This document shows positions 15,740 to 47,959 of a DNA stretch of 64,000 nt, piece after piece. Origin of the DNA: an uncultured virus (IMG/VR IMGVR_UViG_2724679346_000005) (taxonomy: Duplodnaviria; Heunggongvirae; Uroviricota; Caudoviricetes); the IMG/VR virus record IMGVR_UViG_2724679346_000005, one strand, 5' to 3'. Each line of letters opens with the position of its first letter. Within the stretch, counting starts at the first letter, position 1. A program made the position numbers and the translations under genes. The notes under the pieces were generated by a model, which did not search any database, was not told the DNA's origin, and worked only from the letters and a program-made list of their open reading frames with translations.

Positions 15740-16966
15740 TTAGTTTCCTTTTTTAGCCCAGAACGCGGCGTTCTGTTTATTGAGGTCGGCGGCGGTAGGT
15801 CGGCGATTTGGTGCGGCAGAATCGATAGTTCGGTGGTTCACCTGGGTGTTATTCCGCCCTTTGGCAATCTCGCTGGCCGCGATGAATGCCGCATCAAGGG
15901 AGAGTTTCGGCATTTTGGCAAAGTCGGGCTTATCGCCAACAATACCTTTCAGCAGCTTCTCACCCTCTGTGGTTTTAAACGCCGCATCTAATACGGTTCG
16001 TTTAAAGGATGCCAGCTTTCCCCCCTCGGGTAATTTAATGCCGGGTACAATCCATTCCGCGCGGGAAACCACATCCTGATGATAAGCCGCATCGCTGGTA
16101 ATACGTCGCCCCTCTTCCTCCTCGTCTGGGTCGGCGTCGGTGGTTGCGCCTAACTTCTCCAGAATCGCGGCTAAGGTCGTTTCCATAGCAGCAACACGGC
16201 TTTCGATATCGCCACTATCATTAGTCGCGATGGCATCTAATTCAGGCTCCTGTTTCGGTAACGGTTGTTGTGGGTTAATGGTGATATTGATGGCCTTGGG
16301 CAGTTCGCCGGTACCCTCATCGCTGGTTAGCTCTGACGGGGCGCTTTCCATTGCTTCCTCCATCGCGGCGGCATCTTTGGTTTTGATTGCCCGGCGTAGC
16401 TTGGCGAACCAGGTGTTATTCATTGTCATACGTTTACTATCTCCAATTGAACAGCGTTTCCCTGCGCGACCCGTGGGAACGAGCGCGACATGGTTAGCTA
16501 TGATGTCGTACTGACGAGCTTTGCCGATTGCGGTTTGCTGGTATTCGGCATCGTAGCCAGACGAAATTTGATCAACACCCTCTTCAAGAATCACCTTTAT
16601 GGCCTCGGCTTTCTTGACCACGATGTCGGCGATCATTAAATCTGATTGGTCACCTGTTCCGCGCCTGACGTTTTGAACGTGTCCAGCGGCGTAACGGCCC
16701 CAGTTATCAGGTGTTACATCTTCGATGGGGTGAGATACTGTGAACGTCATTCCCTCAAAGCTGGCGAGTGTTTCAGGGCGAAAGACCTCATCCTCCGTCC
16801 TTTCCACTAAGATCTCACCATCACTATCAGGCTCGATATCATCCAGTTCTTCGCCACCGTAAAGCTGCACCCCTGTTCGGCCTATTGGTACGTCTTTGCA
16901 CAATAGGCCACCGTCGCTCATGGTGAAGCGCGTTTCTCCCAGGCGGGAGTTATAGAAATATTGCAT
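15740..16966 (-). CDS. Prohead protease/scaffold (DUF2213-like)
   Basis: EVFRPETLASFEG, ISSGY and NHVALV..GRAG motifs. Confidence 0.85.
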   Translation of the reverse strand: MQYFYNSRLGETRFTMSDGGLLCKDVPIGRTGVQLYGGEELDDIEPDSDGEILVERTEDEVFRPETLASFEGMTFTVSHPIEDVTPDNWGRYAAGHVQNVRRGTGDQSDLMIADIVVKKAEAIKVILEEGVDQISSGYDAEYQQTAIGKARQYDIIANHVALVPTGRAGKRCSIGDSKRMTMNNTWFAKLRRAIKTKDAAAMEEAMESAPSELTSDEGTGELPKAINITINPQQPLPKQEPELDAIATNDSGDIESRVAAMETTLAAILEKLGATTDADPDEEEEGRRITSDAAYHQDVVSRAEWIVPGIKLPEGGKLASFKRTVLDAAFKTTEGEKLLKGIVGDKPDFAKMPKLSLDAAFIAASEIAKGRNNTQVNHRTIDSAAPNRRPTAADLNKQNAAFWAKKGN

Positions 16967-16969
16967 GGG

Positions 16970-17734
16970 TTATCTTTCCGGAATGATGACTTCGCAGTAA
17001 CAACGGCAGTTAGGTAATGCGCCCGCATGGCCCGTCATACCGTCAAGGGTCGGCGGGTTATCCCAGCGAACAAACTTACCTTCCATTTTCTGATGTGAGT
17101 GGCGAACATCGCTATCCTCGGCGGTGCGCCAGATGTAACCGCTGGAACCGATAGAGAGTGAACGGGCCTGTGTTAGTGCCGTTGATGCCCTCCCTATTTC
17201 TGTACGGGCGATCATATTGGCGCGGGATATTGCCACATCACCAGATTTGGCAATTTCTTTAGCGAATGGCTCGGCACGCCCACCGGTGATTACCGCCTCT
17301 AGCGCCTGATTATGGATGTCCTGCACTCTGTCTGCAGCCTGCAAGGGCAGCGACTTGATGAGTTTTATCTGCTCTTCCACGATGTTACGGGCCACCTGCC
17401 CCACAGCGGTGTTTTCCACTATCTGGCGCAAACCCGCTGATATTTCCTGCGAGTTACTGCGCCACATCGCCACGTCTTTTGCATTAATGGCATCGAACAT
17501 CTTACTGGCGGTGGTTCTGGCCCAGCCATCAATCAGGTCTGAATAGCGGTTCAGGCTATCCATAACGTGATAGACGGAATCATTAGAACCATCGTAAGTA
17601 CCATTTACGATGTCGCCGACCATTCGCGCTATCTTGCGTAGCTGCGTTTGATATTGAATTTCCGCGCGCCGTGATTTCAAGCGGGTTGAGATCTGCGCCT
17701 TCGCCGAGGTTCGGCGGGTCGATGTCTTTCGCAC
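16970..17734 (-). CDS. Head morphogenesis protein (Mu gpF/SPP1 gp7-like)
   Basis: IARTE, W-x-T-x-x-D-x-x-VR-x-SH and PNCRC motifs. Confidence 0.85.
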   Translation of the reverse strand: MRKTSTRRTSAKAQISTRLKSRRAEIQYQTQLRKIARMVGDIVNGTYDGSNDSVYHVMDSLNRYSDLIDGWARTTASKMFDAINAKDVAMWRSNSQEISAGLRQIVENTAVGQVARNIVEEQIKLIKSLPLQAADRVQDIHNQALEAVITGGRAEPFAKEIAKSGDVAISRANMIARTEIGRASTALTQARSLSIGSSGYIWRTAEDSDVRHSHQKMEGKFVRWDNPPTLDGMTGHAGALPNCRCYCEVIIPER

Positions 17735-19055
17735 TCTCTATATCCTCATCGCTGATACTGGAGCCGATACCGATAATGCCTGCTTTGTCCCTGAGTTCAG
17801 TCATGCCACCCTGCAGCGTCAGCAAGCCTGAGTCCATTGCAGCATTAATGGTATTAACGGTTTTCTCCGCGACGTCAGCCCGATCAGGTTCCGACATCTG
17901 CCACAGCGGGTTGAAATCAAATGAGAAACCGTCTGGCAGTGGCGAACTAAACTCGGAGTAGTGGATCACTTCGAATAATCGGCGCAGTGGACGACGCAAA
18001 CGGCGCTCTTGTTGAGTTCCGATATTGTCGTAGTAGTTAGCCAGGTCAGCGTCACCGGTTGAGAACCCTGCAGGAGACTGACCAAACAAGCGCACCAGCG
18101 GGATACCAATGGCACCGGCTATCTGTTGGGCAAACTGCGCCATCACATCAGACAATCCACCGAATGCATAACTGTGCGTTTCAAACGTATCGGTGGCATC
18201 CATCAGGGTCAGGCCCTCAGTGCTTTGAAATTGCCGGATCATATCCATGCTTTTCATTAGCCCATCAAAGGCCTTGCCCCCCATCGCGACCAGCTCACGA
18301 AACTTATTGATTTTGTAGGTACGTAGATGCGCCTTAAAAATCAACTGTGCCGCACCGGTCGAGGTGCTATCAAACGCTAGCAACCGGTCAAACAGCCGCT
18401 CTATTACCGACATGCCCCATTCATTCTCTGTTCGCTTCTGCTGATACGGGAGGCCAACACCATCAAGGCGAATCACCCTGCTGTGGTGAATTTTCATGCT
18501 CGGGATACCGCCGCCGGTGGTCACCACCTGGTAATATTTAGGCATACCGAGATCTGGCCCCATCTCGGTCACTCGTTCGCTGATGGTTGGGTTAACCATC
18601 CAACGGTCGAGCACCAGTAGCCCTTTAAACGCATCTTTGCCGATGGTTTCTACCCGTAGTGGTGTTTCCGGCGCTTGGCCGTCAATCATGATGAAACCAA
18701 TTGCCCCACCGTACAGCCGTGACCATTTGATCGTGTCGTTGAGAGCATCCCAGAGGGATAACTCTTCCCAGCGCCCCTCTATTCGCATCTTGGCATCCGG
18801 TGCCATCTTGGAGGTGATGTTAATCCCCTTGCGGGTCATATCATCTGCGATGGTGTCTACCGCCGCGCCCACCAGCCAAGACGAGCGGTAAGCGTTTTCT
18901 ATCAGTTGGCGGTTGCGGGAGGTCCAATTCGGTTGGTAGCTATAATCCGCGCTTTGGTTCTCAGTTCGCAGTCCATATCGAGCAGTGAGGTTTTGATAGC
19001 TATCAGTGGTTCGTTGGGGTGATGACGCCTTGCCTACTTTACGTTTTCTCGACAT
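17583..19055 (-). CDS. Portal protein (DUF1073-like)
   Basis: IHHSRVI, IPLVRLFGQSPAG and NYYD motifs; follows terL. Confidence 0.85.
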   Translation of the reverse strand: MSRKRKVGKASSPQRTTDSYQNLTARYGLRTENQSADYSYQPNWTSRNRQLIENAYRSSWLVGAAVDTIADDMTRKGINITSKMAPDAKMRIEGRWEELSLWDALNDTIKWSRLYGGAIGFIMIDGQAPETPLRVETIGKDAFKGLLVLDRWMVNPTISERVTEMGPDLGMPKYYQVVTTGGGIPSMKIHHSRVIRLDGVGLPYQQKRTENEWGMSVIERLFDRLLAFDSTSTGAAQLIFKAHLRTYKINKFRELVAMGGKAFDGLMKSMDMIRQFQSTEGLTLMDATDTFETHSYAFGGLSDVMAQFAQQIAGAIGIPLVRLFGQSPAGFSTGDADLANYYDNIGTQQERRLRRPLRRLFEVIHYSEFSSPLPDGFSFDFNPLWQMSEPDRADVAEKTVNTINAAMDSGLLTLQGGMTELRDKAGIIGIGSSISDEDIESAKDIDPPNLGEGADLNPLEITARGNSISNAATQDSANGRRHRKWYLRWF

Positions 19056-20671
19056 TACGCCCCCCCGAGCCGTAGCCAGATATCCAGCGCATTATCCATT
19101 GGTGCATATAAAATCATTGCAGAATCCGCCAGGTTGGGTGACTTGGTGCCGTCAGGTTTTTTATCCACCACAATTTTCCCTACGCCATTGACTGAGTAGG
19201 TGGGTTGCGACAATTCAGAGGTTAATTTGGTCAGGTTTTTGAGGTCTTTCGGGATGGAGATAATCTCATCGGGATCGAACTCCATATTTTCCTTAACCGC
19301 CCGATACGTTTTCTGGAACCGGGTGCGCAGACTCCACCAGCCCTGAGCTTTGGCGTTCGCAAAGAAATCCTTGTTAAGCCGCCCCTGTTGACCGTTATCG
19401 CCGGGAATGGCCTCATCATCGGGATCGGTTACACCGCCGCTACCACGGAATGGCGTGGCGACAATATGCCGCCTGCGTTGCTCTTCGCGCTGCTCGTTGA
19501 TAACACGGGCATCACCACGCGCACCGGCCCCCAATCCATCGGTATCAAAGCGGAAAGTTTCGAGGTTTTGTGCATCGCAAATATCAAAGGCTTTTTGTAC
19601 GGTACCGAAAATATCATCGCCTTTTCCCGACCACTCTTCGATGCTTTCGAGTAAGAAACCGTGACGACCGGCAAAGGCATTGGTGTCCTTGCCCTCGTCG
19701 GCGATATCGAGCGCACCTAAGCGCTGGCCGGTTGGCACAATACCCAAGACCTCATGCGCGTTTATTGCTGCCTGTACCCATGCGGATGGAATCAATACGC
19801 CCTCAACAGAGGCGCTATAGTTAATATCAATTTCCTGCGCCACGGTAACGGTGTCGAGATTCTCAACCTGCTTTTGATACCAGGCATCATCTTTGCGCGG
19901 GTCGTCGCGCCAGTGAAAGGTGAATACTTTAATCTTGCCGCTATGCCGCCGTTCAGCGAATGAGTTAGCCATACCGTTTGGCGTTGATATATCCTGCCGA
20001 CAGTTGGTGGTTGCTGACAGAGACGCATCGACCAGATAAGGCCGCTCCAGGAACGCGGATTCATCGACTATGTAAAAGCTGGTGCGGTCACCGCGCCCTA
20101 TCCCGTCACCCGCCTCGCCGGTCATGGCTGATTCAGTTTCTGGGAATAAGATACGCATGTGTGGCGCGTGCTGCTTTAGGCTCCAGCCACCGCGAAACTC
20201 AGTTGGCAACAGAGAGATGAAATTACGGGCTTTATCGAACAGCGATTTAGGCGAGCCGATTTTATCAACATACTCCTCTTTGCGAGAACCGAACCCGGCA
20301 AACACACCACGGTTAAACAGGCAAAGTGAGGAGGCCATACCAACGGTCAGCCACGACATCCCCATATCACGGGTTTTCTCGGTAATGCCCGGTTCAGCAT
20401 TACGCCAGCGTTCAACAAACCACTCGATCCACTCCTCCTGCTTTGGGAATAAGAGGAACGGGATACGGGCTGGCAATCCACGCTCAACGTTGCGGGGGTC
20501 TACTGTCATGCCCCAATCAATAATGAACTGTGCGGGGTTGTCTTTGTAAAACGCTTTCATAACCGGCAACAATTCAGGCTGCTGACGAATGCGCTGCAAT
20601 CGCTCCATTCGCCACTCAAAAACCTGCATGTAGTCCGGGTTTTTGAAGTCAAAAGGGAACGGAATAGGCAT
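19055..20671 (-). CDS. terL: Terminase large subunit
   Basis: KTRDMGMS Walker A variant, YIVDESA Walker B, STPNG, LDIADEG and SPNLAD nuclease motifs. Confidence 0.9.
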
Positions 20672-20709
20672 GTTGGGTTTTGCTCGATAAATGTGTGAAT
20701 TTTAGGACT

Positions 20710-20737
20710 TTTTAACATAATGACCGTTACCCGCACC
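20710..20737 (-). promoter_or_regulatory. XerC/XerD recombination site (dif/cer-like)
   Basis: Minus strand GGTGCGGGTAA-CGGTCA-TTATGTTAAAA vs dif GGTGCGCATAA-TGTATA-TTATGTTAAAT: 9/11 and 10/11 arm identity, 6-bp spacer. Confidence 0.75.
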
Positions 20738-20900
20738 GAGCGCATAGCACTCATCGAACAAGCAGCGTGAGAGGCTTATTTGTCAGGGTTAACGTGTCAG
20801 GGAGTTAGATAATTGAGTGCATAAATCATGCATAAAATACACTCTATTTTGCATAGAGAATTTATCAATCTAACGGGCTATTTCTGGATGCTTACCAAAA

Positions 20901-21920
20901 TTAGCCCATCATTTTACGGTAGGCTTCGGCGGCTTCGTCTGGGGTCATATTTACTGTCTCAGTTTTAACCGGACCACCATCAGGGCCGCTAATCTCTGTT
21001 TTGTTTTTCAACATACCTAAATGCTGGGCAACCATTTTTAAAGCCTCATCCTGATTGCGGGTAATGGCCTCAATACCAAACTTCCCCTCTTTCACTCCAG
21101 AGAACAGGCGACGAGCTGCACCGCGCAGATCCCGTGTATCGTGAAAGTGAGTGCGCCCAACCCCCTCACCATTACAGCGAGGGCAGTCAGGGTTAGGATC
21201 AAGGGTGGCATCAAAACCGTAACCGCCAACGTCTAAAGGCTCCCGTTTTTTGCTTTCTACCGCTTTTAACCGGGACTCTTCAAACTCGACTGCATCGCGC
21301 CACTGATACTGATAACCAAACCCCCAGCAATGGCGGCAACACAAACGGCGTAGTTCAGTAATTTGGCTAGCATCGGCTGTGGCAATATCCCACCACCATT
21401 TCAGCACAGCATCTTGGGTTATTCGCGTCCGTCTTTCTCTGGCGTCCAATGCATCGCGAATGGCCCGGCTAACCTTAGCATTCCTGTACATGCGTGAAGC
21501 GTTCACGTAAGCCGTATTGCCCTCTCCTTTGCCCCCAGACCTTTTATACGCAGCCGTGCTATTCAGGTCGATCAGGTATTCACTCACGAAACGAGCCTGC
21601 ATATCATTAAGCCCGTACTCCTCAAGGTTTAATGTGAATTCGGGTTCGTCGTTTTCATCAGCTGGGTATTCTGAATCTATTTCACTTTCAACGTGAGCCG
21701 CTGGCTTTCTATGTTTGGTTCGCAGGTTCTCATTCTGGTTCGCGCTAATTGCCTGCGAACCTACATTGCGAACCAGTTCGTGTTTAGGCCATTCCTCAGC
21801 CTTTGCCCTCTTTCTTACCGCTGTATCACTTACACCGTATTTCTTGGCAAGCTCTCTGATGGAAAGAGCGCCGGAACGGTAATCACGCTCTATGCCTCTC
21901 CAGTCAGTGTCTTTTGCCAT
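20901..21920 (-). CDS. terS: Terminase small subunit (large variant with N-terminal HTH and Cys cluster)
   Basis: FVSEYLIDLNSTAAYKRSG Terminase_2-like motif; CCRHCWG..CPRCNG; upstream of terL. Confidence 0.85.
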   Translation of the reverse strand: MAKDTDWRGIERDYRSGALSIRELAKKYGVSDTAVRKRAKAEEWPKHELVRNVGSQAISANQNENLRTKHRKPAAHVESEIDSEYPADENDEPEFTLNLEEYGLNDMQARFVSEYLIDLNSTAAYKRSGGKGEGNTAYVNASRMYRNAKVSRAIRDALDARERRTRITQDAVLKWWWDIATADASQITELRRLCCRHCWGFGYQYQWRDAVEFEESRLKAVESKKREPLDVGGYGFDATLDPNPDCPRCNGEGVGRTHFHDTRDLRGAARRLFSGVKEGKFGIEAITRNQDEALKMVAQHLGMLKNKTEISGPDGGPVKTETVNMTPDEAAEAYRKMMG

Positions 21921-22012: not shown

Positions 22013-22753
22013 TCAGATGACTCGATATCTAATCGCTATCAGTGAATGATCGTCGATAGGTCCGGTTCTTTCGATTCGTTTTAACAGGCTTGCGGTGAAA
22101 CTAGCTGGGTTACTGAGTGTATTTAAAGAAAAACGTGGTCGTTTATCCCAGAACGCATGAGCTCCGTCAGACATTAAGTAAACACAGCATTCTTCTTTTT
22201 CATCGATTAAATCGTCATGCGGAATGAAAGTTTGCTGAAAATCTAGCGGAATTGCGTTAGCTATGGCTGTTGTTAAAGTGTGTTTGCCTGGTAGATGCTT
22301 TAATTCACTTTTACTATAAATCTTATCATCGAGTAGTTTTTGGTGTTGCGTATGGTCTTTCGTTACTTGCCTCAGCTTGCCGCCATCTTTTACATATAGC
22401 CGACAGTCACCAACATGTCCTATATGCAGTCCATCATCATCCACTAAGCAGAATGTAAGTGTCGTGGCTGCATTTGAAAACTTAATATTTTCTTGAGAGA
22501 GGGAAGATATCCCTTCCTTCAGGGAAATAAACAAATCTGACATGTCTTGCAATTTCCCTTTTTCCACAAGAGCCGGCAATTTTTTGATGGCCGACTGGGA
22601 AGCATTCTGTGCGCCATCATAGGACCCAACGCCATCAGCAATAGCTATCAAAAGCCCACCGTTAATGAATACCGGTGGAAGAATAGTATCCTGATTTTCT
22701 CTACGAGGCTCTTTGGATCGCGAGAACAAGCCGCAAGTTAGTAACTCAATCAT
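22013..22753 (-). CDS. PP2C-family Ser/Thr protein phosphatase
   Basis: ENQD, IADGVG, HVGDCRLY, TKDHT, MSDG and DDHS motifs. Confidence 0.9.
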   Translation of the reverse strand: MIELLTCGLFSRSKEPRRENQDTILPPVFINGGLLIAIADGVGSYDGAQNASQSAIKKLPALVEKGKLQDMSDLFISLKEGISSLSQENIKFSNAATTLTFCLVDDDGLHIGHVGDCRLYVKDGGKLRQVTKDHTQHQKLLDDKIYSKSELKHLPGKHTLTTAIANAIPLDFQQTFIPHDDLIDEKEECCVYLMSDGAHAFWDKRPRFSLNTLSNPASFTASLLKRIERTGPIDDHSLIAIRYRVI

Positions 22754-23505
22754 AACCCATTCCCTTCAACAATTTTTTTAAGGTCTGCAAGCATTTCATG
22801 AACAGAAACATGCCTTCTTGGCGGTTTTCTCGCAGTGCTTTTAGTTATCAAATCATCAATACCTGGTACAGCGGCGATATCCATATCCTCAATCAAAACA
22901 CCAAGCGCGTAGATATCTGTTTTATCGGAGTAAATCCCTGCAAACACCTCGGGAGCCATGTATCGCTCAGTACCCATGATTGCGGCCACTTTTGTTATAA
23001 CCTCTGATTCAGCTTGTTTGTCTGCATTTTTCACCAAACCAAAATCGGATATTTTATAAGTCCCGTCAGCAAACTTTAATACGTTTTGGGGCTTTAAATC
23101 TCGATGCCAATAGTTATGGTCATGAAGATATGCAACCCCCTCCAACACCATGCGAATAGCGGTAACCTTCTGCTTAATTGTCACCCTACCAGAAGCAATC
23201 TCAGCAACAAGATCACTTTCAGCTAAATCCATGACGAACCACGGGGCATCGCCAGTTAAGTGATGAATGTATATAGGAACTATGTTTGTGTGAGAGCAAT
23301 CAGCCTGATAGGTGACCTCCCTTTCAAACCTACGAATAAATTCGTCACGGTATGCTGGTTCCTGTGGCGCAAAGACCTTCCTCGCGTAGATACCACAAAT
23401 TCCACCATTAATGTTTCGGAGTTCGACTTCTTCTACATAACCAAACCCTCCTTGGCCTATTTTTCTAATTGGTCTGATTAAATAATTGCCATGTGCTTCG
23501 TCCAT
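22750..23505 (-). CDS. Hanks-type Ser/Thr protein kinase
   Basis: GQGGFG, ARK, HRDLKPQN, DFG, YMAPE and DIYALG; likely ATG 23505; 4-bp overlap with phosphatase. Confidence 0.92.
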   Translation of the reverse strand: MDEAHGNYLIRPIRKIGQGGFGYVEEVELRNINGGICGIYARKVFAPQEPAYRDEFIRRFEREVTYQADCSHTNIVPIYIHHLTGDAPWFVMDLAESDLVAEIASGRVTIKQKVTAIRMVLEGVAYLHDHNYWHRDLKPQNVLKFADGTYKISDFGLVKNADKQAESEVITKVAAIMGTERYMAPEVFAGIYSDKTDIYALGVLIEDMDIAAVPGIDDLITKSTARKPPRRHVSVHEMLADLKKIVEGNGL

Positions 23506-23642
23506 TCTTTCTTTCCGTGCAAATACTGAATGGCACAACTTTACACCAACATTTGGCACTTAACACAACCAAACCTTGTTTTCTATAAGTGATATCTAAT
23601 TAAATTAACGAAAAATTCTCATTCAAAGGAGATTTTTTCTTT

Positions 23643-27246: not shown

Positions 27247-27600
27247 TCACACCGTTAATTTAGTCTCATGCCACCCAAGAGTTTGCCAGCATTTACTTTC
27301 ACCGATAAATGCGCAGCCCTGACTATCACCAGGTAGAGCATCACCACACTTCCCGCACTTGCGCCCGGATTGCTCTTTGAGCTGCGACTGTAGCTCTGCG
27401 TTATCTTTGCGGATCAGCATAGTGATGTATTCGTCCATGTCATACGGTTCACGTTGCGGGCGGCGTAGAGCGCAGTTTTGTTGTAGCATTTCTTTCTCTT
27501 GCTGGTCTATCGTCGCTATTAATTTATAGCTGCCACTATCACGTTCTTTCTGCCGCTGTAGGCGTTTACGAGCCGCAGCCCGCTCTTTGGTGTCTGTCAT
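27247..27600 (-). CDS. Phage hypothetical protein with Cys motif
   Basis: Basic N-terminus, CGKCGDALP..C..CW; overlaps the methylase stop. Confidence 0.65.
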   Translation of the reverse strand: MTDTKERAAARKRLQRQKERDSGSYKLIATIDQQEKEMLQQNCALRRPQREPYDMDEYITMLIRKDNAELQSQLKEQSGRKCGKCGDALPGDSQGCAFIGESKCWQTLGWHETKLTV

Positions 27601-29792
27601 GCTGCCATTCTCCAAATACACAGCTCTGGCATATTGGCCCTTACCAACGCCTCGGCAAAGGGTGGCGGTACCGCATTACCACACCTTGCCACCTGCTCAG
27701 ACTTAGGCCAGAGGGTGCCATCAATATCCCGGTCAATAATGTAATCTGGTGGGAACCCGCTGGCGTTGTAGAGTTCACGGGCAATCAGCATGCGCATACA
27801 AATATCAACGATGATGTATTCGCCCACAGATAGATATTGTGGTCGTGGGGCGGGGAATAAATGCCAGTCGCCCGGTAAATCGCTGAAATGATCCACCAGC
27901 CGTGCGCAGTTCCAGGCGTTATAGCGTTGTTCGTCGGTCAGGGGTTCTACATCAAAATTGTTTTCTACCAAACTAAAACGCTCTTTTGTCGTCACTGCGT
28001 GTATCGGTTCTGAGAGATCCACCGCGCCGCCGGTACCGTAATACTTGGTTAGAAACGCGTTAACCATCCCGACATGATTACCGCCGGCTGTTAAAGTCGG
28101 TACCGGTTCAGTGATGGGTTTACCATCGCGACATGTGCCCCGCAATTGCACCAGGTGAGATGTACAAAGCGCATGGTGATCAACGGTGGTGATGGTATGC
28201 AATGGCTCATCAGCATCAATTCCGGCACCGGTATAATTGCCGCCGTAATGTTTTACCAGATGGGCTGCAACCATTCCCATTGCATGACCGTTACCACCAG
28301 GGCGAACCGATGTACCGGCGGTGATAGTCGATAATGGTTCATCACATTGCTGGCCTATAGCACCTGTTCTGAATTTTGTTATATGCGGTGCCAGTATTGC
28401 ACTGGCTAACTGGCTTTTACCGCCCCCACCCGCCGTAACGGTACCCAGTGGAGTATTGATATCATTTGCCGTGCTGTTACCAAACTGACGCACAACAACC
28501 GGCGCAGCGATAGCAAAACCATGCGTTCTGGTGATGGTCTGTAACGGATCGCGCAATGACTGCCCACGGAAGCAATCATATTTGGTTTTGGTGCTGGTGT
28601 GATTGCACTTCACTGCATATGGCTCCAGCAACAAATGCTCGGCCTTGCTGGTGATGGTGGTCAGCGGCTGGTCTAGCGGATATTGCAAGCGGTCACCACC
28701 AAAACCAGTTTGGCCCAGCCGCACAATAAATGGATCTGGATTATCGATAACAAATCGCTGCAACCCTTTGACGATGCGACGCAATGTATTATCAGCCAGG
28801 TCTTTTTTACGACCAAAAATAGAACGTGTCGGCTGGCTCCAGTCAATACACTCCGCCGCCGTTCGCCAAGGTTGCAGCACACCGGTAATCACATCAGCAG
28901 AGTTGGGTGCGCCGTGGCTTGGCTCTGGCCATACAACCGGCTCACCATCACAACGCCCAACTACAAACAGCCGCTTCCTGATGGTGGGTGTGCCGTAATC
29001 ACAGGCTTTCAGTTCCCGATGTTCCACGTTATACCCCAGCCCTGAAATCAGCCTTGCCGCCTCAGGGCCATTGATATCTATCTTCAAGAATTCACACACT
29101 TCGACCAGTGCGGGGTGATTAGCATCAATCCCAGCACTCAGCATGCCAATAAATGCTTTGAACGTTTCTCCCTTACGGGCGGGGTCGGGTCGGTGATTAC
29201 CTTCGCTATCCGTCAAAAGTGGCCCCCAGCCGCGAAATTCTTCGACGTTCTCCAGCATCAGAAAGCGAGGACGCACCGCTAGCGCCCAGCGCAACACCAC
29301 CCATGCCAGACCACGAATCTCTTTCTTGACTGGCGTTCCGCCCTTGGCCTTAGAGAAATGGCGGCAATCAGGACTAAACCAACCCAGTAATACCGGTAAA
29401 CCTCCCGTTGATATGAGCGGATCAACACTGAAAATATCCTCAGGGTAATGCAGCGTCCGAGGATGGTTGATGGCATGCATAGCCATCGCCACAGGGTTAT
29501 GATTCATAGCAATGTGCGGTTCATAACCCAATGCCTGCTTGATCCCTTCACAACTACCACCGCCACCAGCGAACCCAACGACAACCAGACCATCCTGCAA
29601 ATCAGGTCGTGCAACTGTGATTTCTTTGCGCCGCGCCCAGGCATGAGCAGCCTGTTGGATGTGCTGCGGATTATCTCGATTTAAAAACATTTGGTTCATC
29701 TTGGCCAGTAGCTGCTGTTGCTCTGGCTCACTCATCGCGTGTACAGGAATGACTGACGAGGCGCATTGCTGAACTTCGGTAGGCCAGATCAT
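27597..29792 (-). CDS. C5 DNA cytosine methyltransferase (long phage type)
   Basis: FAGGGG, SPDC, ENVEEF, YGTPTIRKRLF and GNAVPP; repeated PLxTIT units. Confidence 0.9.
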   Translation of the reverse strand: MIWPTEVQQCASSVIPVHAMSEPEQQQLLAKMNQMFLNRDNPQHIQQAAHAWARRKEITVARPDLQDGLVVVGFAGGGGSCEGIKQALGYEPHIAMNHNPVAMAMHAINHPRTLHYPEDIFSVDPLISTGGLPVLLGWFSPDCRHFSKAKGGTPVKKEIRGLAWVVLRWALAVRPRFLMLENVEEFRGWGPLLTDSEGNHRPDPARKGETFKAFIGMLSAGIDANHPALVEVCEFLKIDINGPEAARLISGLGYNVEHRELKACDYGTPTIRKRLFVVGRCDGEPVVWPEPSHGAPNSADVITGVLQPWRTAAECIDWSQPTRSIFGRKKDLADNTLRRIVKGLQRFVIDNPDPFIVRLGQTGFGGDRLQYPLDQPLTTITSKAEHLLLEPYAVKCNHTSTKTKYDCFRGQSLRDPLQTITRTHGFAIAAPVVVRQFGNSTANDINTPLGTVTAGGGGKSQLASAILAPHITKFRTGAIGQQCDEPLSTITAGTSVRPGGNGHAMGMVAAHLVKHYGGNYTGAGIDADEPLHTITTVDHHALCTSHLVQLRGTCRDGKPITEPVPTLTAGGNHVGMVNAFLTKYYGTGGAVDLSEPIHAVTTKERFSLVENNFDVEPLTDEQRYNAWNCARLVDHFSDLPGDWHLFPAPRPQYLSVGEYIIVDICMRMLIARELYNASGFPPDYIIDRDIDGTLWPKSEQVARCGNAVPPPFAEALVRANMPELCIWRMAA

Positions 29793-35051: not shown

Positions 35052-36209
35052 ATGAAGATATTCGCTGAAAAATTAAGAGCGCACTCTGATCACGTAAAAA
35101 AAGTAAGCCATCATTGTTCTACCGAAGAAACAACTAAACAGGCATTAATATTGCCAATGTTAGATATTCTTGGCTTTAACTCTTATGACCCAACAAAAGT
35201 TAAAGCAGAATATGGCGCTGATTTCCCTGGTGTTAAAGTAGGTGAGCGAGTCGACTATGCTCTATTTTGCCATGGTGTTCCTGTCATGTTTATTGAGGCC
35301 AAGGGCTATAATCAAAAACTTGATAACCATTGCCCTCAGCTTTCTAGGTATTTTAACGCGACACCTGAGGTTACTATTGCAGCCATAACCAATGGCACCC
35401 AATGGCGTTTCTTTACTGACCTTAAGCAAAGAAATATTATGGATGCCGCTCCATTCCTACAGATTGATGTAGATGAAGCATCGGACTCTGATGCTCATCA
35501 GCTATATCAATTCCGTCACGACCAGTTCCAACCGGAAGCACTTCGAACCTTAGCTGAAGAAAGCATTTATTTATCAGCATTTACTGATGTTATTAGTGAT
35601 AGCTTAAGGAATGTCGATTCTGACTTTGTCCGCTATGTTGCAAGTCGCTCTAGCGTACAACGGCAGTTGAACCAAAAGTTCCTCGATACAATTACACCAT
35701 TGGTAAAAATGGCAGTAGAGCGAGCTGTTAGTGCAATGGTTGTTTCTGGGCTATCTATGGCCTCTAACAAAGACAAAGATATTGAAGCCGCACTCGCACC
35801 TGAGCTGAAAAAAACAGATGAAACCGCACCAGTGGTCGACCCTGAAAATTCAAATATCGTTACTACACATAACGAAAGACAATTTTTTAGCAATATTCAA
35901 ATTTTACTTGGTGAACAAGCGGATATTTCAGCAAAAGACACCGCCAGTTATTACAATATTCTTTACCAAGGAAAATCAAACCGTTGGATTGTACGTTATT
36001 TTGATAGCAAACAGCGGCCGTCGATAATTTTACCAATTGAATTAGATGAAAAAGCTATCGTAGAAGTTGAGCGGGCAGGACTTGAACTAGCTCCCGGCAA
36101 TCAAATTATAATAGATCGCCCTGAGAACATTTTACGATTACCAGGGCTAATCTTGGATTCATATAATTATTGCATGGAGGATGATAATTTCAGAAACAAG
36201 AAAAAATAG
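35052..36209 (+). CDS. HsdR_N-like PD-(D/E)xK nuclease-domain protein
   Basis: EETTKQALILP, VDYAL..FIEAK, QL..YF and ITNG..WRF. Confidence 0.8.
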   Translation: MKIFAEKLRAHSDHVKKVSHHCSTEETTKQALILPMLDILGFNSYDPTKVKAEYGADFPGVKVGERVDYALFCHGVPVMFIEAKGYNQKLDNHCPQLSRYFNATPEVTIAAITNGTQWRFFTDLKQRNIMDAAPFLQIDVDEASDSDAHQLYQFRHDQFQPEALRTLAEESIYLSAFTDVISDSLRNVDSDFVRYVASRSSVQRQLNQKFLDTITPLVKMAVERAVSAMVVSGLSMASNKDKDIEAALAPELKKTDETAPVVDPENSNIVTTHNERQFFSNIQILLGEQADISAKDTASYYNILYQGKSNRWIVRYFDSKQRPSIILPIELDEKAIVEVERAGLELAPGNQIIIDRPENILRLPGLILDSYNYCMEDDNFRNKKK

Positions 36210-40621: not shown

Positions 40622-40828
40622 ATGCAGCCATGGCAGCCGGGCAAACGGCTATTGACCGAGTTCGACATTAAGATTGGCAAGTTATCAGCCAGCGTACGCA
40701 AACAGCAACTCACCGACCAAGATATACAGCGGGCATGTTCTGAGACCGACAGAGCAATTTACCGAATGATACAGGGGCAAGACCATGAGAAACGACCACG
40801 ACATAATCACGAAAGAGGAGATGATTGA
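40622..40828 (+). CDS. Phage hypothetical protein
   Basis: 68 aa with AGGGG SD, upstream of xis. Confidence 0.6.
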   Translation: MQPWQPGKRLLTEFDIKIGKLSASVRKQQLTDQDIQRACSETDRAIYRMIQGQDHEKRPRHNHERGDD

Positions 40829-41021
40829 GCTGACCGGTCATCACTATAAAACTAAGCAATGTGAATCTTTGCGCCGGGCAGGAATATTTTTTATTGAACG
40901 CCCGGATGGTCACCCGAAAACAACCTGGGGCCATTTTTTAAATCCCGTCAGTTTACGTGGCAAGCATGCAGAACAAGAGAAAGAAGAGCCCGATTTTGAG
41001 GCTATGAATAGTGGCAGGTAA
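40785..41021 (+). CDS. Excisionase-like protein (DUF4224-like)
   Basis: ELTG..KQCESL..GIFFIERPDGHP..EEPDFEAM; overlaps int start. Confidence 0.75.
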   Translation: MRNDHDIITKEEMIELTGHHYKTKQCESLRRAGIFFIERPDGHPKTTWGHFLNPVSLRGKHAEQEKEEPDFEAMNSGR

Positions 41022-42027
41022 ACGTAAGAACGCCGCAGACAACTGGATGCCATCTCGTGTATTCCGAGGCCCTAGCGCTTATAACTTCAAACATCCGGAC
41101 GGGCGTACGATAAGACTGTGCGCACTTGACTCTACCCAGGCGGATGTCTGGGTTAATTATGAGAAATATATTGATCAGAAAAAAGACCAGCCAACGCTAA
41201 ATTCACTTGTTGAGTCTTTTTTCAGGTCGGTTGATTTTATTGATTTGGCAACAGAGACTCAGAAGGACTATCGGAAATACGCCATGAAATTACTACCGGT
41301 TTTCGGGGTCATGCACCCCGACAATATAAAGCCAGAGCATGTCAGAAAATACATGGATAAAAGAGGGTTGAGTAGCAGGACACAAGCAAACAGGGAAAAA
41401 ACGTTTATGTCTCGCACTTACCGATGGGGATATGAACGGGGATTTGTGAAAGGTAATCCATGCAAGGGAGTTAAGCAATTTAAAGAGGAAGCGAGAGAGC
41501 GTTATATTACTGATGAAGAATATAACGCAGTGTATCAAGTCGCACCTGATGTTGTACGGGCCACGATGGAAATAGCTTATCTGTGTCTCGCCAGGCAAGC
41601 AGATGTGCTTTCATTGCGTAAAGATCAGTTCAGAGAATCGGGGATATACATCAGGCAGGGTAAAACAGGGGCAAAACAAATCAAGGCATGGTCCGAACGA
41701 TTACGTGATGCCATCGCCATGGCTGAATCACTACCGATCAAACAAGGTGTAAGTAGCGTCTACATCATCAGACAACAAAACGGCCAGCGATATACACGCG
41801 ATGGATTTAACAGTCGATGGCGCAAAGCCAGAGAGGCGGCAAAAGAGGCAAATCCAAAGTTAGATTTTAATTTCACCTTCCATGACCTTAAAGCCAAGGG
41901 TATTTCTGATCTTGAAGGGACACTCAGTGAAAAACAGGCAATTTCAGGGCATAAAAACATGGGGCAAACAGCGAGGTATGACAGAAAAATAAAAATCGTG
42001 CCAGTAGTAGGTAATCAGAAAAAGTGA
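41011..42027 (+). CDS. int: Tyrosine integrase
   Basis: ARQAD (R), QGKTG (K), FHDLKAK, SGHK and TARYDR. Confidence 0.92.
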   Translation: MAGKRKNAADNWMPSRVFRGPSAYNFKHPDGRTIRLCALDSTQADVWVNYEKYIDQKKDQPTLNSLVESFFRSVDFIDLATETQKDYRKYAMKLLPVFGVMHPDNIKPEHVRKYMDKRGLSSRTQANREKTFMSRTYRWGYERGFVKGNPCKGVKQFKEEARERYITDEEYNAVYQVAPDVVRATMEIAYLCLARQADVLSLRKDQFRESGIYIRQGKTGAKQIKAWSERLRDAIAMAESLPIKQGVSSVYIIRQQNGQRYTRDGFNSRWRKAREAAKEANPKLDFNFTFHDLKAKGISDLEGTLSEKQAISGHKNMGQTARYDRKIKIVPVVGNQKK

Positions 42028-42318: not shown

Positions 42319-43494
42319 ATGTCTGCAACCGATTACCACCACGGTGTGCGCGTCATTGAAATCAGCGAAGGCACCCGCCCGATCCGCACTGTCAGTACGG
42401 CGGTGGTCGGGATGGTCTGTACTTCCGATGATGCTGACGCCACCCTGTTTCCACTCAATACCCCGGTATTACTCACCGATGTGCTGGCCGCCAGCGGCAA
42501 AGCCGGTGAAACCGGCACATTAGCCCATTCACTGGATGCTATCAGCGACCAAACCAAACCACTGACCGTCGTTGTCCGGGTGGCGCAGGGTGAAACCGAA
42601 GCTGAAACCACGTCAAATATTATTGGCGGAATAGCACCAGATGGCCGTTATACCGGCATGAAAGCGCTGTTAGCGGCGCAGGGTAAGTTTGACGTCAAGC
42701 CCCGTATTTTAGGGGTTCCCGGTCATGACACTCTGGCGGTATCCACTGAGCTACTTTCCATCGCTCAGAGCCTACGTGCCTTTGCCTACATCAGCGCCTA
42801 CGGTTGCAAAACCAAAGAAGAGGCCATTATCTACCGCGATAACTTCAGTCAGCGCGAAGCGATGGTGATTTGGCCCGATTTCCTCAGTTGGGACACGGTC
42901 ACTAACGCCGAAACCACCGCTTACGCCACGGCTCGCGCCCTCGGCTTGCGTGCCAAAATTGATAATGATGTTGGCTGGCATAAAACGCTGTCTAACGTCG
43001 GGGTGAATGGCGTCACCGGTATCAGTGCGGATGTGTTCTGGGATCTGCAAAACAGCGCCACCGATGCCAATTTGCTTAACAGCAAAGATGTCACCACGCT
43101 GATCCGCAAAGATGGCTACCGTTTTTGGGGTTCCCGCTCCTGTTCCGATGATCCGCTGTTTGCCTTTGAGAACTACACCCGCACCGCGCAGGTACTGGCT
43201 GACACTATGGCCGAGGCCCATATGTGGGCTAACGATAAGCCGCTTACCCCGTCACTGGCAAAAGACATTATTGAGGGTATTCGCGCCAAAATGCGCGAGC
43301 TGAAATCATTGGGTTATCTGATTGATGGTGACTGCTGGTACGACGACAGCGTAAACGATAAAGACACACTAAAGGCTGGCCGCCTGTTTATTGATTACGA
43401 CTATACGCCTGTGCCGCCGCTGGAAGATTTAACCCTGCGCCAACGCATTACTGATCGTTATCTGGCTAATTTCGCCGCCGCCGTTAACAGCTAA
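42319..43494 (+). CDS. FI: P2-type tail sheath
   Basis: [26 protein letters not shown] and PVPPLE. Confidence 0.95.
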
Positions 43495-43505
43495 GGAGCG
43501 TAACT

Positions 43506-44021
43506 ATGGCATTACCACGCAAGCTTAAGTTCCTCAATGTGTTCAATGACGGGAACAGCTATCAGGGGGTGGTTGAATCCATCACCTTGCCAAAATTAAA
43601 CCGCAAATTTGAAGACTTTCGCGGGGGCGGGATGAATGGCAGCGCCAAGGTCGATTTGGGGCTGGCTGATGGGGCGCTGGACGTTGACTGGACGCTGGGC
43701 GGTATTGAGTCCGAGATCTACAAGCAATGGGGCGTGACCAAAGTCGATGGTGTGTTACTGCGTTTTGCTGGCTCCTATCAGCGCGACGATACCGGCGAAA
43801 CCCACGCGGTAGAAATTGTCCTCCGTGGTCGCCACGAAGAAATCGACGGCGGTGACAGCAAACAAGGCGATAACAGCACCACAAAAATCTCCACAAAATG
43901 TACTTACTACAAATTGGCATGGGATGGCGAAGTGCTGATCGAGATCGACATTGTGAACATGGTCGAAATGGTCAGCGGCGTCGATATGCTGGAAGCCCAC
44001 CGCCGCAACATCGGCCTGTAA
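43506..44021 (+). CDS. FII: P2-type tail tube
   Basis: MALPRKLK..RGGGM..HRRNIGL. Confidence 0.95.
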   Translation: MALPRKLKFLNVFNDGNSYQGVVESITLPKLNRKFEDFRGGGMNGSAKVDLGLADGALDVDWTLGGIESEIYKQWGVTKVDGVLLRFAGSYQRDDTGETHAVEIVLRGRHEEIDGGDSKQGDNSTTKISTKCTYYKLAWDGEVLIEIDIVNMVEMVSGVDMLEAHRRNIGL

Positions 44022-44074
44022 TATCACGGTGCGGATAACTCCGCGCCTTTACCCCTTATTTATTGGTAACCATT

Positions 44075-44422
44075 ATGAGCAAGATAACCACTGTAGATGC
44101 ATTACCGTCCGTGCCTGTCGAGACTTCTGCTGATGCCTTTAACGTAGTCACATTAGATGCGCCGATCATGCGAGGTAATACAACAATCACGCAGATCACG
44201 GTCAATAAACCCAATACCGGCGCATTGCGCGGCGCCAAATTGCAGGCACTGCTTGATACCGATGTTGATGCGTTGATCCGTGTGCTGCCTCGCGTCACCA
44301 CCCCTAACCTGACCGTGCCAGAAATCAACAATTTGGAACCAGCCGATATTTACGCGTTATCGCAGGCACTGGCGCTTTTTTTCTTACCGAACTCGGTGCG
44401 GTCAGATTTCCTGACAGCTTAA
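44075..44422 (+). CDS. E: Tail assembly chaperone E
   Basis: TLDAPI.RG, P..GALRG, DVDALI.VLPR. Confidence 0.9.
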   Translation: MSKITTVDALPSVPVETSADAFNVVTLDAPIMRGNTTITQITVNKPNTGALRGAKLQALLDTDVDALIRVLPRVTTPNLTVPEINNLEPADIYALSQALALFFLPNSVRSDFLTA

Positions 44423-44556
44423 CCGTTGACGATTTGATAGCGGATATTGCGATAACCTTTCACTGGCCGCCCTCCGCTACCGAAGAGATGTCCTTAGGTG
44501 AACTTTTAGAGTGGCGACATAAAGCCATTATCCGCAACGGGGGCAGTGATGAGTGA
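44376..44556 (+). CDS. E' extension via -1 frameshift at T7 run 44376-44382
   Basis: -1 frame reads LTVDDLIADIAITFHWPPS..ELLEWRHKA..SDE*, typical of P2 E'. Confidence 0.8.
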
Positions 44557-47483
44557 TAAGAACCTCCGTTTGCGGGTTTCCTTAAGTGCCATAGATAAAA
44601 TCACCCGGCCATTTAAATCTATGTTGGCCAGCAATAAAACGCTGGCTGCATCCATCAAAACGACGAAAGACCAGCTTAAGCAACTCAATGGCCAGGCGGC
44701 CAAAATTGAGGGTTTTCGTCAGAATAAAGCCGCTGTTGATCGTGCCGCACAGGCGTTGACTGCCGCCCGCGATAAAGCGCGTCAACTCGCCACTGAATTA
44801 AAAAACAGCGCAGCGCCTACAGCTAAGCAGGCGAGAGAGTTTAAGCGTGCCAGTGAAGAGGCCGCAAAACTCAAGCAAAAGTACAATGACTTACGTACCG
44901 CACTCCACACCCAGCGTGCCGCCTTACAAAGCAGCGGCGTTGCCACTAATCGACTGGGACAAGCACAGCGAACCCTTAAAGCCAGCATCACCAGCACCAC
45001 CGCCGCGCTGGCCGCACAACAACGCCGGTTAGCGCAACAAGCCCAACAACAGCAACGCCTGAATGCCGCCCGCAATCGCTTTGATGCCAGCAATCAGCGC
45101 AAAGCGGTAGCCGCCGGATTAGGGTATACCTCGTTTGCTACCGGCCGCGCCATGGGTCGGGGGATAACCAAAACGTTGGGTGTGGGTTATGAATTTGACG
45201 CGATGATGAGCAAAACCCAGGCCGTTACCCGCATTCCGGATAAAAACGCGGAGGATATGCAGGCGATGCGTCACCAGGCCCGTACCCTGCCACTCTCATC
45301 CAAGTTTACCGATCTGGAAGTGGCTGAAGGCCAATACTTTCTTGGCCGCACTGGCTATAGCCCGAAACAGGTTATGGGGGCAATGCCCGGTATGCTTAAC
45401 CTCGCCGCTGCCGGAGGGATTGATCTTGCTACTGCTGCCGATATTGCTTCCAATATTCAAACCGCCATGGGTATTCCAGCGGAGAAAATGGATCACGTTG
45501 CCGATGTGCTAACAGCCCTCTTCACCCGGAATAACGTCGATATCCCGATGCTGGGTGAATCGCTTAAGTACTCTGCCGGTGTGGGTCGCGAATACGGCCA
45601 GAGTCTGGAAACCGTGGCGGCGGCCACAGCTATGCTGGGTAGCGCTGGTATTCAAGGCAGTCAGGCCGGTACCACTATGCGCAGTATCTTGAGCCGTATT
45701 GGTGGCTCTAAAACCGTGAAAGATTTGGGCGTCAAAACTGCCGATAAAGACGGCAATATGCGTGATCTGGTTGATATTCTTAAAGATATCAACGAGAAAA
45801 CCGCAAAAATGGGTAATGTTGAGCGCGGTGCAATCTATAAAAGCATTGCCGGACAATATGCCGTTACCGGATTTGGCGTGTTAATGAATGCTGCCGAGGA
45901 TGGATCGTTGGAGCAGATGCGAGGCCAGCCCGGCCAGTATGATGGTGAATCAAACCTCGTAGCTTCAACCATGCTCGACAACCTAAAAGGCGATATGACC
46001 ATTCTCCATGCCGCCATGGAGAATATCAGTGTTGAGTTATTTGAGAAGAATAACGACTGGCTACGTTCGGCGGCAAAAGGCATCAGTGAATTTATGCACG
46101 GCGTGGCTGAATTCCTTAAGGCTCATCCCGGCGTGAGTACTGCGATTGTAAAAGTGGGTACCGTTGTCGCCATTGCAACCGCCGCATTCGGGGCGCTGGC
46201 GATTGCTGCCGTGGGTATTTTAGGCCCCTTCGCCCTGCTCCGTTTTACTACCTCAGTGCTGGGGATCCGCTTATTGCCGCGCTTGTCGTTGAGTCTGTTT
46301 CGACTGGCAAGTATCACGCCCATTACAGGTGCGCAAATTGGCAACTTTAGCCGCTCACTGCTCGTGATGTCTCAACAGGGCGGCCGCTCAGCCATCGCCA
46401 GTTTAAAAGGGTTGGGTCAAGGTCTGGTGAACGTGGCCCGCTCGCCAGTGAAATCGGCCGTCAGTGGCTTTACGTTACTCGGTAATGGTATTAGCTGGCT
46501 GGCTAAATCCCCGCTTAGGTTCCTGCGTTTCGCGCTCGGTGGCCTGGGTAGCATGTTGGGTATCCTGATCAGCCCGATTGGGTTAATTGCCGCGGCAATC
46601 GTGGGTGCTGGCTTATTGATTTACAAGTACTGGCAACCGATTAAAGCGTTCCTTGGGGGGGTGGTAGAGGGCTTTATGCAGGCCGCCGCACCGATTAAAG
46701 AGGCGCTTAAACCGCTGGGGCCGGTGTTTGACTGGATTGGTGATGCAGTCAAAAACGTGTGGAACTGGTTTAAAAAGTTACTGGAACCGGTGCAATCAAC
46801 CACGGCCGATTTAAACCGCGCCGCTAATGCCGGTAAGGCCTTTGGTCAGTTTTTGGCTGACGGCATTGGACTGGCCATGATACCGATAAATGCGTTGATC
46901 TCATCCATTAAATGGGTACTTGAAAAACTGGATGAAGTAAAGCAACGCTCTGACAAAACCCAGGCACTGGCGCAGGCAAACCCAGCCACTGCCGCGGGCC
47001 CGGGTAACTACGGCGTGGCGTGGAAACCAGCGCAAACGAAAAGCACCTATATCGAAAGTAAATATACCGGGGCATATGATAACGGCGGTACCATCCCGCT
47101 CGGAAAATTTGGCGTGGTAGGTGAATATGGCCCGGAAATCATCAACGGCCCGGCACAGGTCACCAGCCGCCNNNNNNNNNNNNNNNNNNNNNACCCCCGC
47201 CGCTATGGCGGTTGCGGCTTCCATGCTATTCAGTGGCTACCCGGCCAGCGCCGCGCCGCTCCATCCTTACAGTTTACCGGCGGCACAGTACCGCAGTAGC
47301 AACGGTCAGACAAATAATCATCAGCAAAATCAAACCAGCCATGCTGCGCCAGTTATCAATATTTACCCGACGCCACAGCAGGATGCGCAGGATATTGCCC
47401 GCGAGGTGGCCCGCCAGCTGGCCGCCCACAACCGCAGGGAACAGAGCAAATCAAACCGCAGTTATCAAGACCATGACGACTAA
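44549..47483 (+). CDS. T: Tape measure protein T, spans gap 47172-47192
   Basis: Long helical ORF; C-terminal part continues after the gap to the stop at 47483. Confidence 0.85.
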
Positions 47484-47494
47484 GGAGCAATAAC

Positions 47495-47959
47495 ATGATG
47501 ATGGCACTGGGGATGTTTGTCTTTATGCGGCAAACCACCCCTTATCAAGATTTTCAACATCAGATGGCGTGGCGGCATCCGTCAAATGCCCGTTTTGGTC
47601 TCCGCTCATCCAGTCAATTTTTAGGGCCAGATGAAGAATCCATTACCTTATCCGGTGTGTTGTATCCAGAGCTGACCGGCGGCAAGCTTTCATTAATGGC
47701 CTTGCAACTGATGGCAGAAACCGGCAAGGCCTGGTCACTGATTGAAGGGAACGGCGCGATCCATGGCATGTTTGTCATTGAGAGCCTGGAACGCACTAAA
47801 AGTATTTTTTTCAGTGATGGGTCAGCCCGTAAAATTGAATTTACGCTTAGCTTAAAACGTACCGATGAATCACTAAAAGAGATGTTTGGGGAGCTGTCTC
47901 AGCAATTTGACGATATCGCCAGCAGCGTATCGAACACCGCCGCCGGATTATTATCATGA
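47495..47959 (+). CDS. U: Tail protein U
   Basis: MMMALGMFVF, WRHPSN, ITLSGVLYPELTGG. Confidence 0.93.
   Translation: MMMALGMFVFMRQTTPYQDFQHQMAWRHPSNARFGLRSSSQFLGPDEESITLSGVLYPELTGGKLSLMALQLMAETGKAWSLIEGNGAIHGMFVIESLERTKSIFFSDGSARKIEFTLSLKRTDESLKEMFGELSQQFDDIASSVSNTAAGLLS

Follow-up and report, generated by a model that had tools for sequence, protein, structure and literature searches.

The terminase gap and its Xer-type core

The DNA analysed here, called the window, is a stretch of 64,000 nucleotides from an uncultured tailed virus. It carries a prophage of a lambdoid temperate myophage of the SEN34 type, with its closest named kin in Yersinia. The TerL protein is 99% identical to that of prophages of Yersinia frederiksenii and Y. 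artesiana. A preliminary description of this DNA reported a 229-bp gap between terS and terL in an integrase-encoding phage. Both statements were borne out: the terminase genes lie at this distance on the minus strand, and the integrase gene was located at 41011-42027 (Table 1). The prophage also encodes an exonuclease VIII-like gene and a Gp157 gene. No recombinase gene that could serve the site in the manner of P1 Cre was found near it in the window. The attachment sites of the prophage are not visible, with tail genes at the contig start and a run of N after the integrase. Past this run, the P2-type tail operon of a second element was observed (42319-49050 and beyond, plus strand), and the join may be an assembly artefact. 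Among the other genes of the window are an inserted gene pair for a Ser/Thr kinase and a PP2C phosphatase, lying between Rz and terS (22013-23559, minus strand), which looks like a defence or superinfection moron, a DNA methyltransferase of 731 aa that is long for its family (27597-29792, minus strand), and an HSDR_N-domain protein of 385 aa encoded immediately after the repressor gene (35052-36209, plus strand).

Table 1. Coordinates of the features discussed in the text (window positions unless a locus is named).
Feature	Position	Strand	Remarks
Head-morphogenesis and protease genes, abutting in the window	15740..17734	-	
terL, large terminase	19055..20671	-	nearest solved relatives Sf6 gp2 and 8dkr
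XerD-type arm	20710..20720	-	1 mismatch to dif and to pSC101 core; conservation 0.97
6-bp spacer (crossover region) CGGTCA	20721..20726	-	9 variants in 18 non-redundant close relatives
XerC-type arm	20727..20737	-	2 mismatches to pSC101 core arm, 2 to dif; conservation 0.88
Accessory region, 163 bp, terS stop to core	20738..20900	-	
GAGTGC motif at -15	20747..20752	-	common to pSC101 site (GAGT at -15)
Two TTTATGCA direct repeats, 11-bp period	20817..20837	-	include the palindrome of the preliminary description
Third repeat copy CTATGCA	20850..20856	-	21 bp from second copy; conservation 0.99
terS, small terminase	20901..21920	-	phrog_51, PF03592; pac region presumed here
Probable excisionase and tyrosine integrase, same prophage	40785..42027	+	PF13986, PF00589
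Second tyrosine recombinase genes, upstream of terS in site-bearing phages	L281:1437-2468, L338:3025-4092, L266:36961-37965		

The core reads GGTGCGGGTAA CGGTCA TTATGTTAAAA on the minus strand from 20737 to 20710, in an 11-6-11 layout. The proposal of a near-consensus XerC/XerD core at 20710-20737 was thus confirmed: of its 22 arm bases, 3 differ from those of enterobacterial dif. It is the best match to the dif arms in the 75,128-bp contig, where 0.0013 such matches are expected by chance. The dif arm motifs used in this search were later found letter for letter in six loci. The contig was also scanned with a scoring matrix built from phage and plasmid arms. The window core scored 37.9, no other core reached 12, and the maximum in five shuffles was 18.4. 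We consider the site very probably a working Xer target.

Accessory DNA, conservation and relation to known Xer systems

The preliminary description placed accessory DNA on the XerC side, and conserved motifs at fixed distances out to -119 support this. Whichever of three gene junctions holds the site, the upstream gene's stop codon is in most loci 144-163 bp away from the core. The GAGTGC motif at -15 is possibly a PepA contact, and the TTTATGCA repeats are predicted to be the binding site of a second accessory protein. Among 71 non-redundant phage sites, 48 were assigned to the type of the window (R), 17 to type A (TGTTR-N6-TGTTR), three to type a (the same box reversed, as in pSC101), and three fitted none. 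An ArcA box near -96 is therefore present in the 17 A and three a sites and absent from the window site, which has the TATGCA repeats instead. The A box is probably ArcA-binding, to judge from the ArcA consensus and from the match to pSC101.

The direct repeat was found in 46 of the 48 R sites. The third copy was also found in 46, at a spacing of 21 bp in all of them. A start at 99 bp ahead of the core was found for the R repeats in 40 of 48 sites and for the A box in 17 of 17 sister sites. The palindrome described earlier at 20818-20832 is present, 81-95 bp from the XerC arm, but it is exact in only 14 of the 48 R sites; we therefore preferred to describe the element as three TATGCA direct repeats. 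A TTTA is conserved ahead of the left arm and has no mirror image on the right. The accompanying cer/ArgR reading was not supported, as the spacer is 6 bp long and the motif lies at -99 to -81 and not at the position of the cer ARG box (-113 to -100). The best match to a standard ARG box, with 4-bp spacing, had 2-4 mismatches in all 48 R sites, and the motif found here is spaced by 5 bp. The AT[GT]CA part of the repeats resembles an ArgR half-site, and the candidate binders are ArgR on half-sites, a response regulator, DnaA and a LysR-type protein. TerS is an unlikely binder, since the repeats accompany TerS proteins of several types and are also found in a podophage group. The R and A boxes look interchangeable because both occupy terS-terL, Q-holin and podophage slots. 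Two plasmid matches to R-type accessory DNA were inspected and both proved to be prophages on plasmids, a weak negative for ordinary plasmids. Judging by the TATGCA repeats, the accessory factor would differ from those of the standard ArgR and ArcA boxes.

Conservation in related phages was examined in 80 IMG/VR loci found by TerL, with the site scored within 1 kb upstream of terL. The site was present in 41 of 50 relatives with TerL identity of at least 83%. The nine that lack it hold cargo instead. At 72-75% TerL identity the core was found in none of 30 loci, and terS and terL abut there. In 18 non-redundant close relatives picked by TerL, the conservation was 0.88 and 0.97 for the arms, 0.93-0.99 for the repeats and 0.88 for GAGT at -15, as against 0.66 for the spacer and 0.58-0.74 for the flanks. 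The arms are thus better conserved than their surroundings, and the outcome that the preliminary description named as refuting it, arms no more conserved than flanks, did not occur. In locus L023 (1-750) the site is absent and the terS-terL slot is occupied by other genes, which we take to be a HicAB-like toxin-antitoxin pair. Among species-level genome loci, the core was found in 6 of 44, all in Enterobacterales (Yersinia, Izhakiella, Rouxiella, Proteus and Pantoea). Among cultured phages the site was found in yong1, Mulock, EKP1 (which has two) and vB_EcoM-606R2 (where it precedes the holin), but not in SEN34.

The site has features of several known systems. At psi the accessory proteins are PepA and ArcA, and at cer they are PepA and ArgR (10.64898/2026.02.23.706985 and PMC5357621). 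Like psi of pSC101, the window site has a 6-bp spacer, three arm mismatches (2+1) and GAGT at -15. Its accessory motif at -99 to -81 corresponds in position to the pSC101 ArcA box at -96, and sister sites have an ArcA-like box at -96 or, reversed, at -99. Unlike psi, it carries three TATGCA direct repeats in place of the ArcA box and belongs to a phage that integrates, within its late operon and often alongside a second site. With cer (ColE1) and mwr (pJHCMW1) it shares a core with accessory DNA on the XerC side. The window site has neither the 8-bp spacer of cer nor its ARG box, which is spaced by 4 bp and lies at -113 to -100. The phage-borne dif-like core recalls the IMEXs CTX, VGJ and TLC (PMC5357621). 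Unlike these, the present phage is tailed, has its own integrase and carries a single internal core in 75 kb with no dif-hybrid boundaries. The site is psi-like, conserved and apparently active. By defining features it stands outside the psi, cer and IMEX families, and its accessory motif is new.

Placement, pairing and natural junctions

Pattern scans of IMG/VR gave an estimated ~330, 280, 210 and 560 matching stretches, and flanks were retrieved for 80 loci in each. In the ArcA-like scan, 20 of the 80 loci had no Xer core and were dropped. The matches listed comprised 225 distinct site neighbourhoods, which are not independent lineages, and few lineages stand behind the counts; phage YP3 and five plasmid loci were left out. 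Among these matches 201 of the 225 sites were co-directional with the late genes, two were opposite and 22 had no identified neighbour. The two opposite-facing sites carry neither an R nor an A box. An inverted core with no R or A box was seen inserted between terL and portal (L312:2882 and L342:7660). KOPS polarity was considered as the cause of the fixed orientation. The count was 18:2 on the late strand in six genomes, and controls of the same composition gave 18:5, 15:3, 12:5, 10:5 and 12:6; as strand composition explains the skew, this cause was rejected.

The upstream gene was identified for 192 of the matches listed and was terS in 101, terL in 19, a head-morphogenesis gene in 54 and Q in 18. 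The 18 Q-holin sites lie 1.4-3.7 kb upstream of terS, and the sites of L302 and L313 lie upstream of a probable terS. An unrelated group of temperate podophages has the site at the head of the virion operon, with a T7-like terL ~15 kb away; an ORF adjoining the site matched no family in an Atlas search. In a Serratia phage-plasmid the site is close to repA/parA and separated from the terminase by ~20 kb. Nine Klebsiella records of 37-43 kb that are filed as plasmids also carry the site, and the one inspected was an integrase phage. In a scan blind to the accessory DNA, a PBSX-like terL was preceded at 170-200 bp by a core in the same orientation in 8 of 76 loci, from unrelated environmental phages. 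The terminases beside R and A sites are Sf6-like, PBSX, Terminase_6 or T7-like. A Pfam scan of 20 cluster representatives, drawn from 37 clusters and with the T7-like one in addition, gave no hit to a lambda gpA or HK97-type family. A second tyrosine recombinase gene just upstream of terS was noted in 2 of 79 loci in one scan and 7 of 76 in another (examples in Table 1).

Many relatives carry a second, ArcA-like site at the junction of the head-morphogenesis and protease genes, a slot that is empty in the window. Among the matches listed, a partner site lies 2.3-4.2 kb upstream for 43 of the 47 head-morphogenesis sites, and the spacers of all 19 distinct pairs differ at the first base. Two loci look like natural deletions between paired sites, to judge from sequence junctions at the core. 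In L204, terS, the R accessory DNA and the XerC arm of the first site are joined to the spacer end and right flank of the second, with loss of terL, portal and the head-morphogenesis gene. The switch point appears to fall between the XerC arm and the last spacer base, as placed by one diagnostic base. In L129, a 38.8-kb provirus with no portal gene, a terL-portal site is joined to the right flank of the second site. This could also be a short-homology deletion via the shared XerD arm. In phage YP3 (L391), three identical cores and a scrambled gene order were observed, which suggests a mis-assembled record. In contigs from 4 of the 24 public runs for the Klebsiella-type locus L145, no ends, no pac signal and no joint at the site were found.

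The slot between core and terL holds varied small genes (HEAT repeat, DUF2158, DUF1508, DUF6953), often starting directly after the XerD arm. In L009 and L026, which represent one event, a 151-codon ORF lies between two hybrid cores in direct repeat. The left core combines the phage XerC arm with a spacer and XerD arm identical to those of the main pJHCMW1 core, in which it resembles mwr. The right core combines a plasmid-like XerC arm with the phage spacer and XerD arm. The ORF is 86-87% identical to a gene on small ColE-type plasmids, whose copies start after a cer-type core and, in L513, end at a second one at the same point. The window holds no cargo gene flanked by two cores, and no second core (score of at least 16) was found at the other cargo-bearing loci. 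At L009 (6720-7460), and also in L011, L012 and L026, the cargo ORF of the second slot ends in an inverted cer-type core with a 7-bp spacer, which replaces the A-type site. No match was found for a plasmid source of this L009 cargo. Published work covers Xer-driven exchange among small plasmids (PMC6764390, PMC8683028) and pdif modules in Acinetobacter (PMC5790767). The present case resembles such modules in that a gene flanked by two Xer cores passed from one replicon to another (L009, L513). It differs from pdif in that the recipient is a prophage, the cores are in direct repeat and there is one case.

Other Xer-type cores were met in the scans. A ColE1-like cer core with a 7-bp spacer was seen at about 6001 in lambdoid prophages (L522, L538, L552, L575). 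Plasmid-type accessory DNA was found in the two that were viewed, a transposase adjoins the core in at least two, and one has a lambda-type terminase. Dif-like cores also occur in large phage records of 94-155 kb (L524, L526, L536, L537, L586), in L537 among T4-like replication genes. A microvirus and an inovirus adjoin an exact dif core (L555 and L519), consistent with known Xer-dependent integration.

Possible roles of the site

Our favoured reading, still a tentative one, is that the site circularises terminally redundant incoming DNA; the preliminary description had put forward this role or multimer resolution. In P1, lox lies near pac in the terminal repeat and Cre circularises the genome. 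The proposed logic is the same, a tyrosine-recombinase site near pac that is duplicated in the terminal repeat, but the enzyme would be host XerCD with accessory proteins, and there is no Cre-like gene beside the site. Host XerC and XerD would bind the arms of the psi-like core. PepA and a second host protein, ArcA at the sister sites and another factor at the TATGCA repeats, would wrap the ~160 bp of accessory DNA and so limit the reaction to direct repeats in one molecule. Packaging would be by headful, with pac in or near terS. Two direct copies, predicted in the terminal repeats, could then recombine to a unit-length circle. Staggered second sites would cover later headfuls, and unlike spacers would stop two sites from deleting terL-portal.

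Terminal repeats are favoured as the substrate because the sites cluster downstream of terS and occur in staggered pairs, because the terminases scanned are of non-cos types, and because of the environmental loci with a PBSX-like terL. Of the 192 placed sites among the matches listed, 174 follow terS, terL or a head-morphogenesis gene and 18 precede terS. Sf6, whose gp2 is among the nearest solved relatives of TerL, and P22 are headful packagers, and the P22 pac lies in terS (PMC9611059). If pac lies in terS here as well, the stretch from terS to the head-morphogenesis gene would be duplicated in early headfuls. No published packaging mode was found for this phage group, and the Mulock announcement (PMC6856289) is silent on both the site and the termini.

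The main competing explanation, which we judge somewhat improbable, is multimer resolution: with PepA and a second factor, XerCD would reduce supercoiled circular dimers or tandem prophages to monomers, in the manner of psi on plasmids and in the service of clean integration or of a carrier state. The topological filter provided by accessory DNA fits this, and supercoiling poses no problem. For circularisation it does: psi and cer recombination is favoured on negatively supercoiled DNA (10.64898/2026.02.23.706985), and linear incoming DNA has no supercoiling. Multimer resolution also accounts for the Q-holin sites upstream of terS and the podophage position far from terL, both of which speak against circularisation. 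Further points on its side are the psi-oriented ArcA-like box at -96 in the repA/parA phage-plasmid and in vB_YpM_39, and the Klebsiella records filed as plasmids. However, it leaves the clustering at packaging genes unexplained, as well as the two staggered sites, the lack of R or A sites seen with cos terminases and the 201 of 203 oriented sites that face one way. A single site would suffice for multimer resolution, so the paired sites favour circularisation. The Serratia phage-plasmid was counted for circularisation too, because there, with a known need for multimer resolution, the site is far from the terminase. Other observations weigh against circularisation: Mulock (Exo/Bet/Gam), yong1 and the window phage have recombination genes of their own, the site is missing from SEN34 as well as from nine of the 50 close relatives, and one cos-type prophage has a ColE1-like cer site distant from its terminase. 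The fixed orientation is explained by neither circularisation nor multimer resolution.

A further reading is a transcriptional checkpoint, to which we give little credence. Here a XerCD-PepA-factor roadblock or multimer sensor would make the expression of terL, portal, protease or holin depend on what state the DNA is in, with ColE1 Pcer/Rcd as a parallel. All placed sites are in late operons and co-oriented, and they lie just before a key morphogenesis or lysis gene, in the podophage group too. The terS-terL gap, however, contains no promoter, terminator or RNA family above chance; one weak promoter-like match was found in 20500-21100, where 1.4 are expected by chance, and there was no Rfam match. 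Antisense morons, moreover, often lie between core and terL. It is similarly improbable that the sites are kept as a platform for bringing in cargo genes and swapping packaging modules. The plasmid gene between hybrid cores in L009/L026, with the same gene between cer-type cores in plasmid L513, and the varied genes right behind the XerD arm agree with such a role, but there is one clear event at the slot, other cargo loci have no second core, and cargo without a site was seen in nine of the 50 close relatives. Moreover, the accessory DNA that is best conserved is of a kind that disfavours recombination between separate molecules (10.64898/2026.02.23.706985). Loss from the same nine relatives would suit a functionless relic of a plasmid fragment. 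This is very improbable given arms and three repeats conserved at 0.88-0.99 with fixed spacing, while the flanks drift, across several genera and junctions. Integration at host dif, as in IMEXs, is suggested by the dif-like arms and by the non-tailed phages at exact dif (L519, L555) in the broad scan. Against it, the site is whole and internal to the packaging operon, its spacer is unlike that of dif, the phage has its own integrase and a probable excisionase, and integration would split terS from terL. This reading is largely refuted, and we assign it next to no weight.

Accessory-type Xer sites on plasmids and the use of Xer by phages through integration at dif are known already. No published account of such sites in tailed phages was found in open-licence PMC and bioRxiv, and older subscription papers may hold one. 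We regard as possible, though rather doubtful, the wider proposal that non-cos temperate tailed phages use host XerCD for the job that Cre does in P1, with staggered sites of unlike spacer that circularise successive headfuls, with two interchangeable accessory boxes (one ArcA-like, one for a third, undescribed Xer accessory protein) and with the occasional import of plasmid cassettes. If this is true, such import would be one route to morons. The captured cassette is a concrete route for a gene from plasmid to prophage and bears on the open question of how morons arrive. With such sites widespread in tailed phages that carry an integrase, common Klebsiella prophages and the cultured yong1 and Mulock among them, the life cycle of these phages would gain a step that depends on the host.
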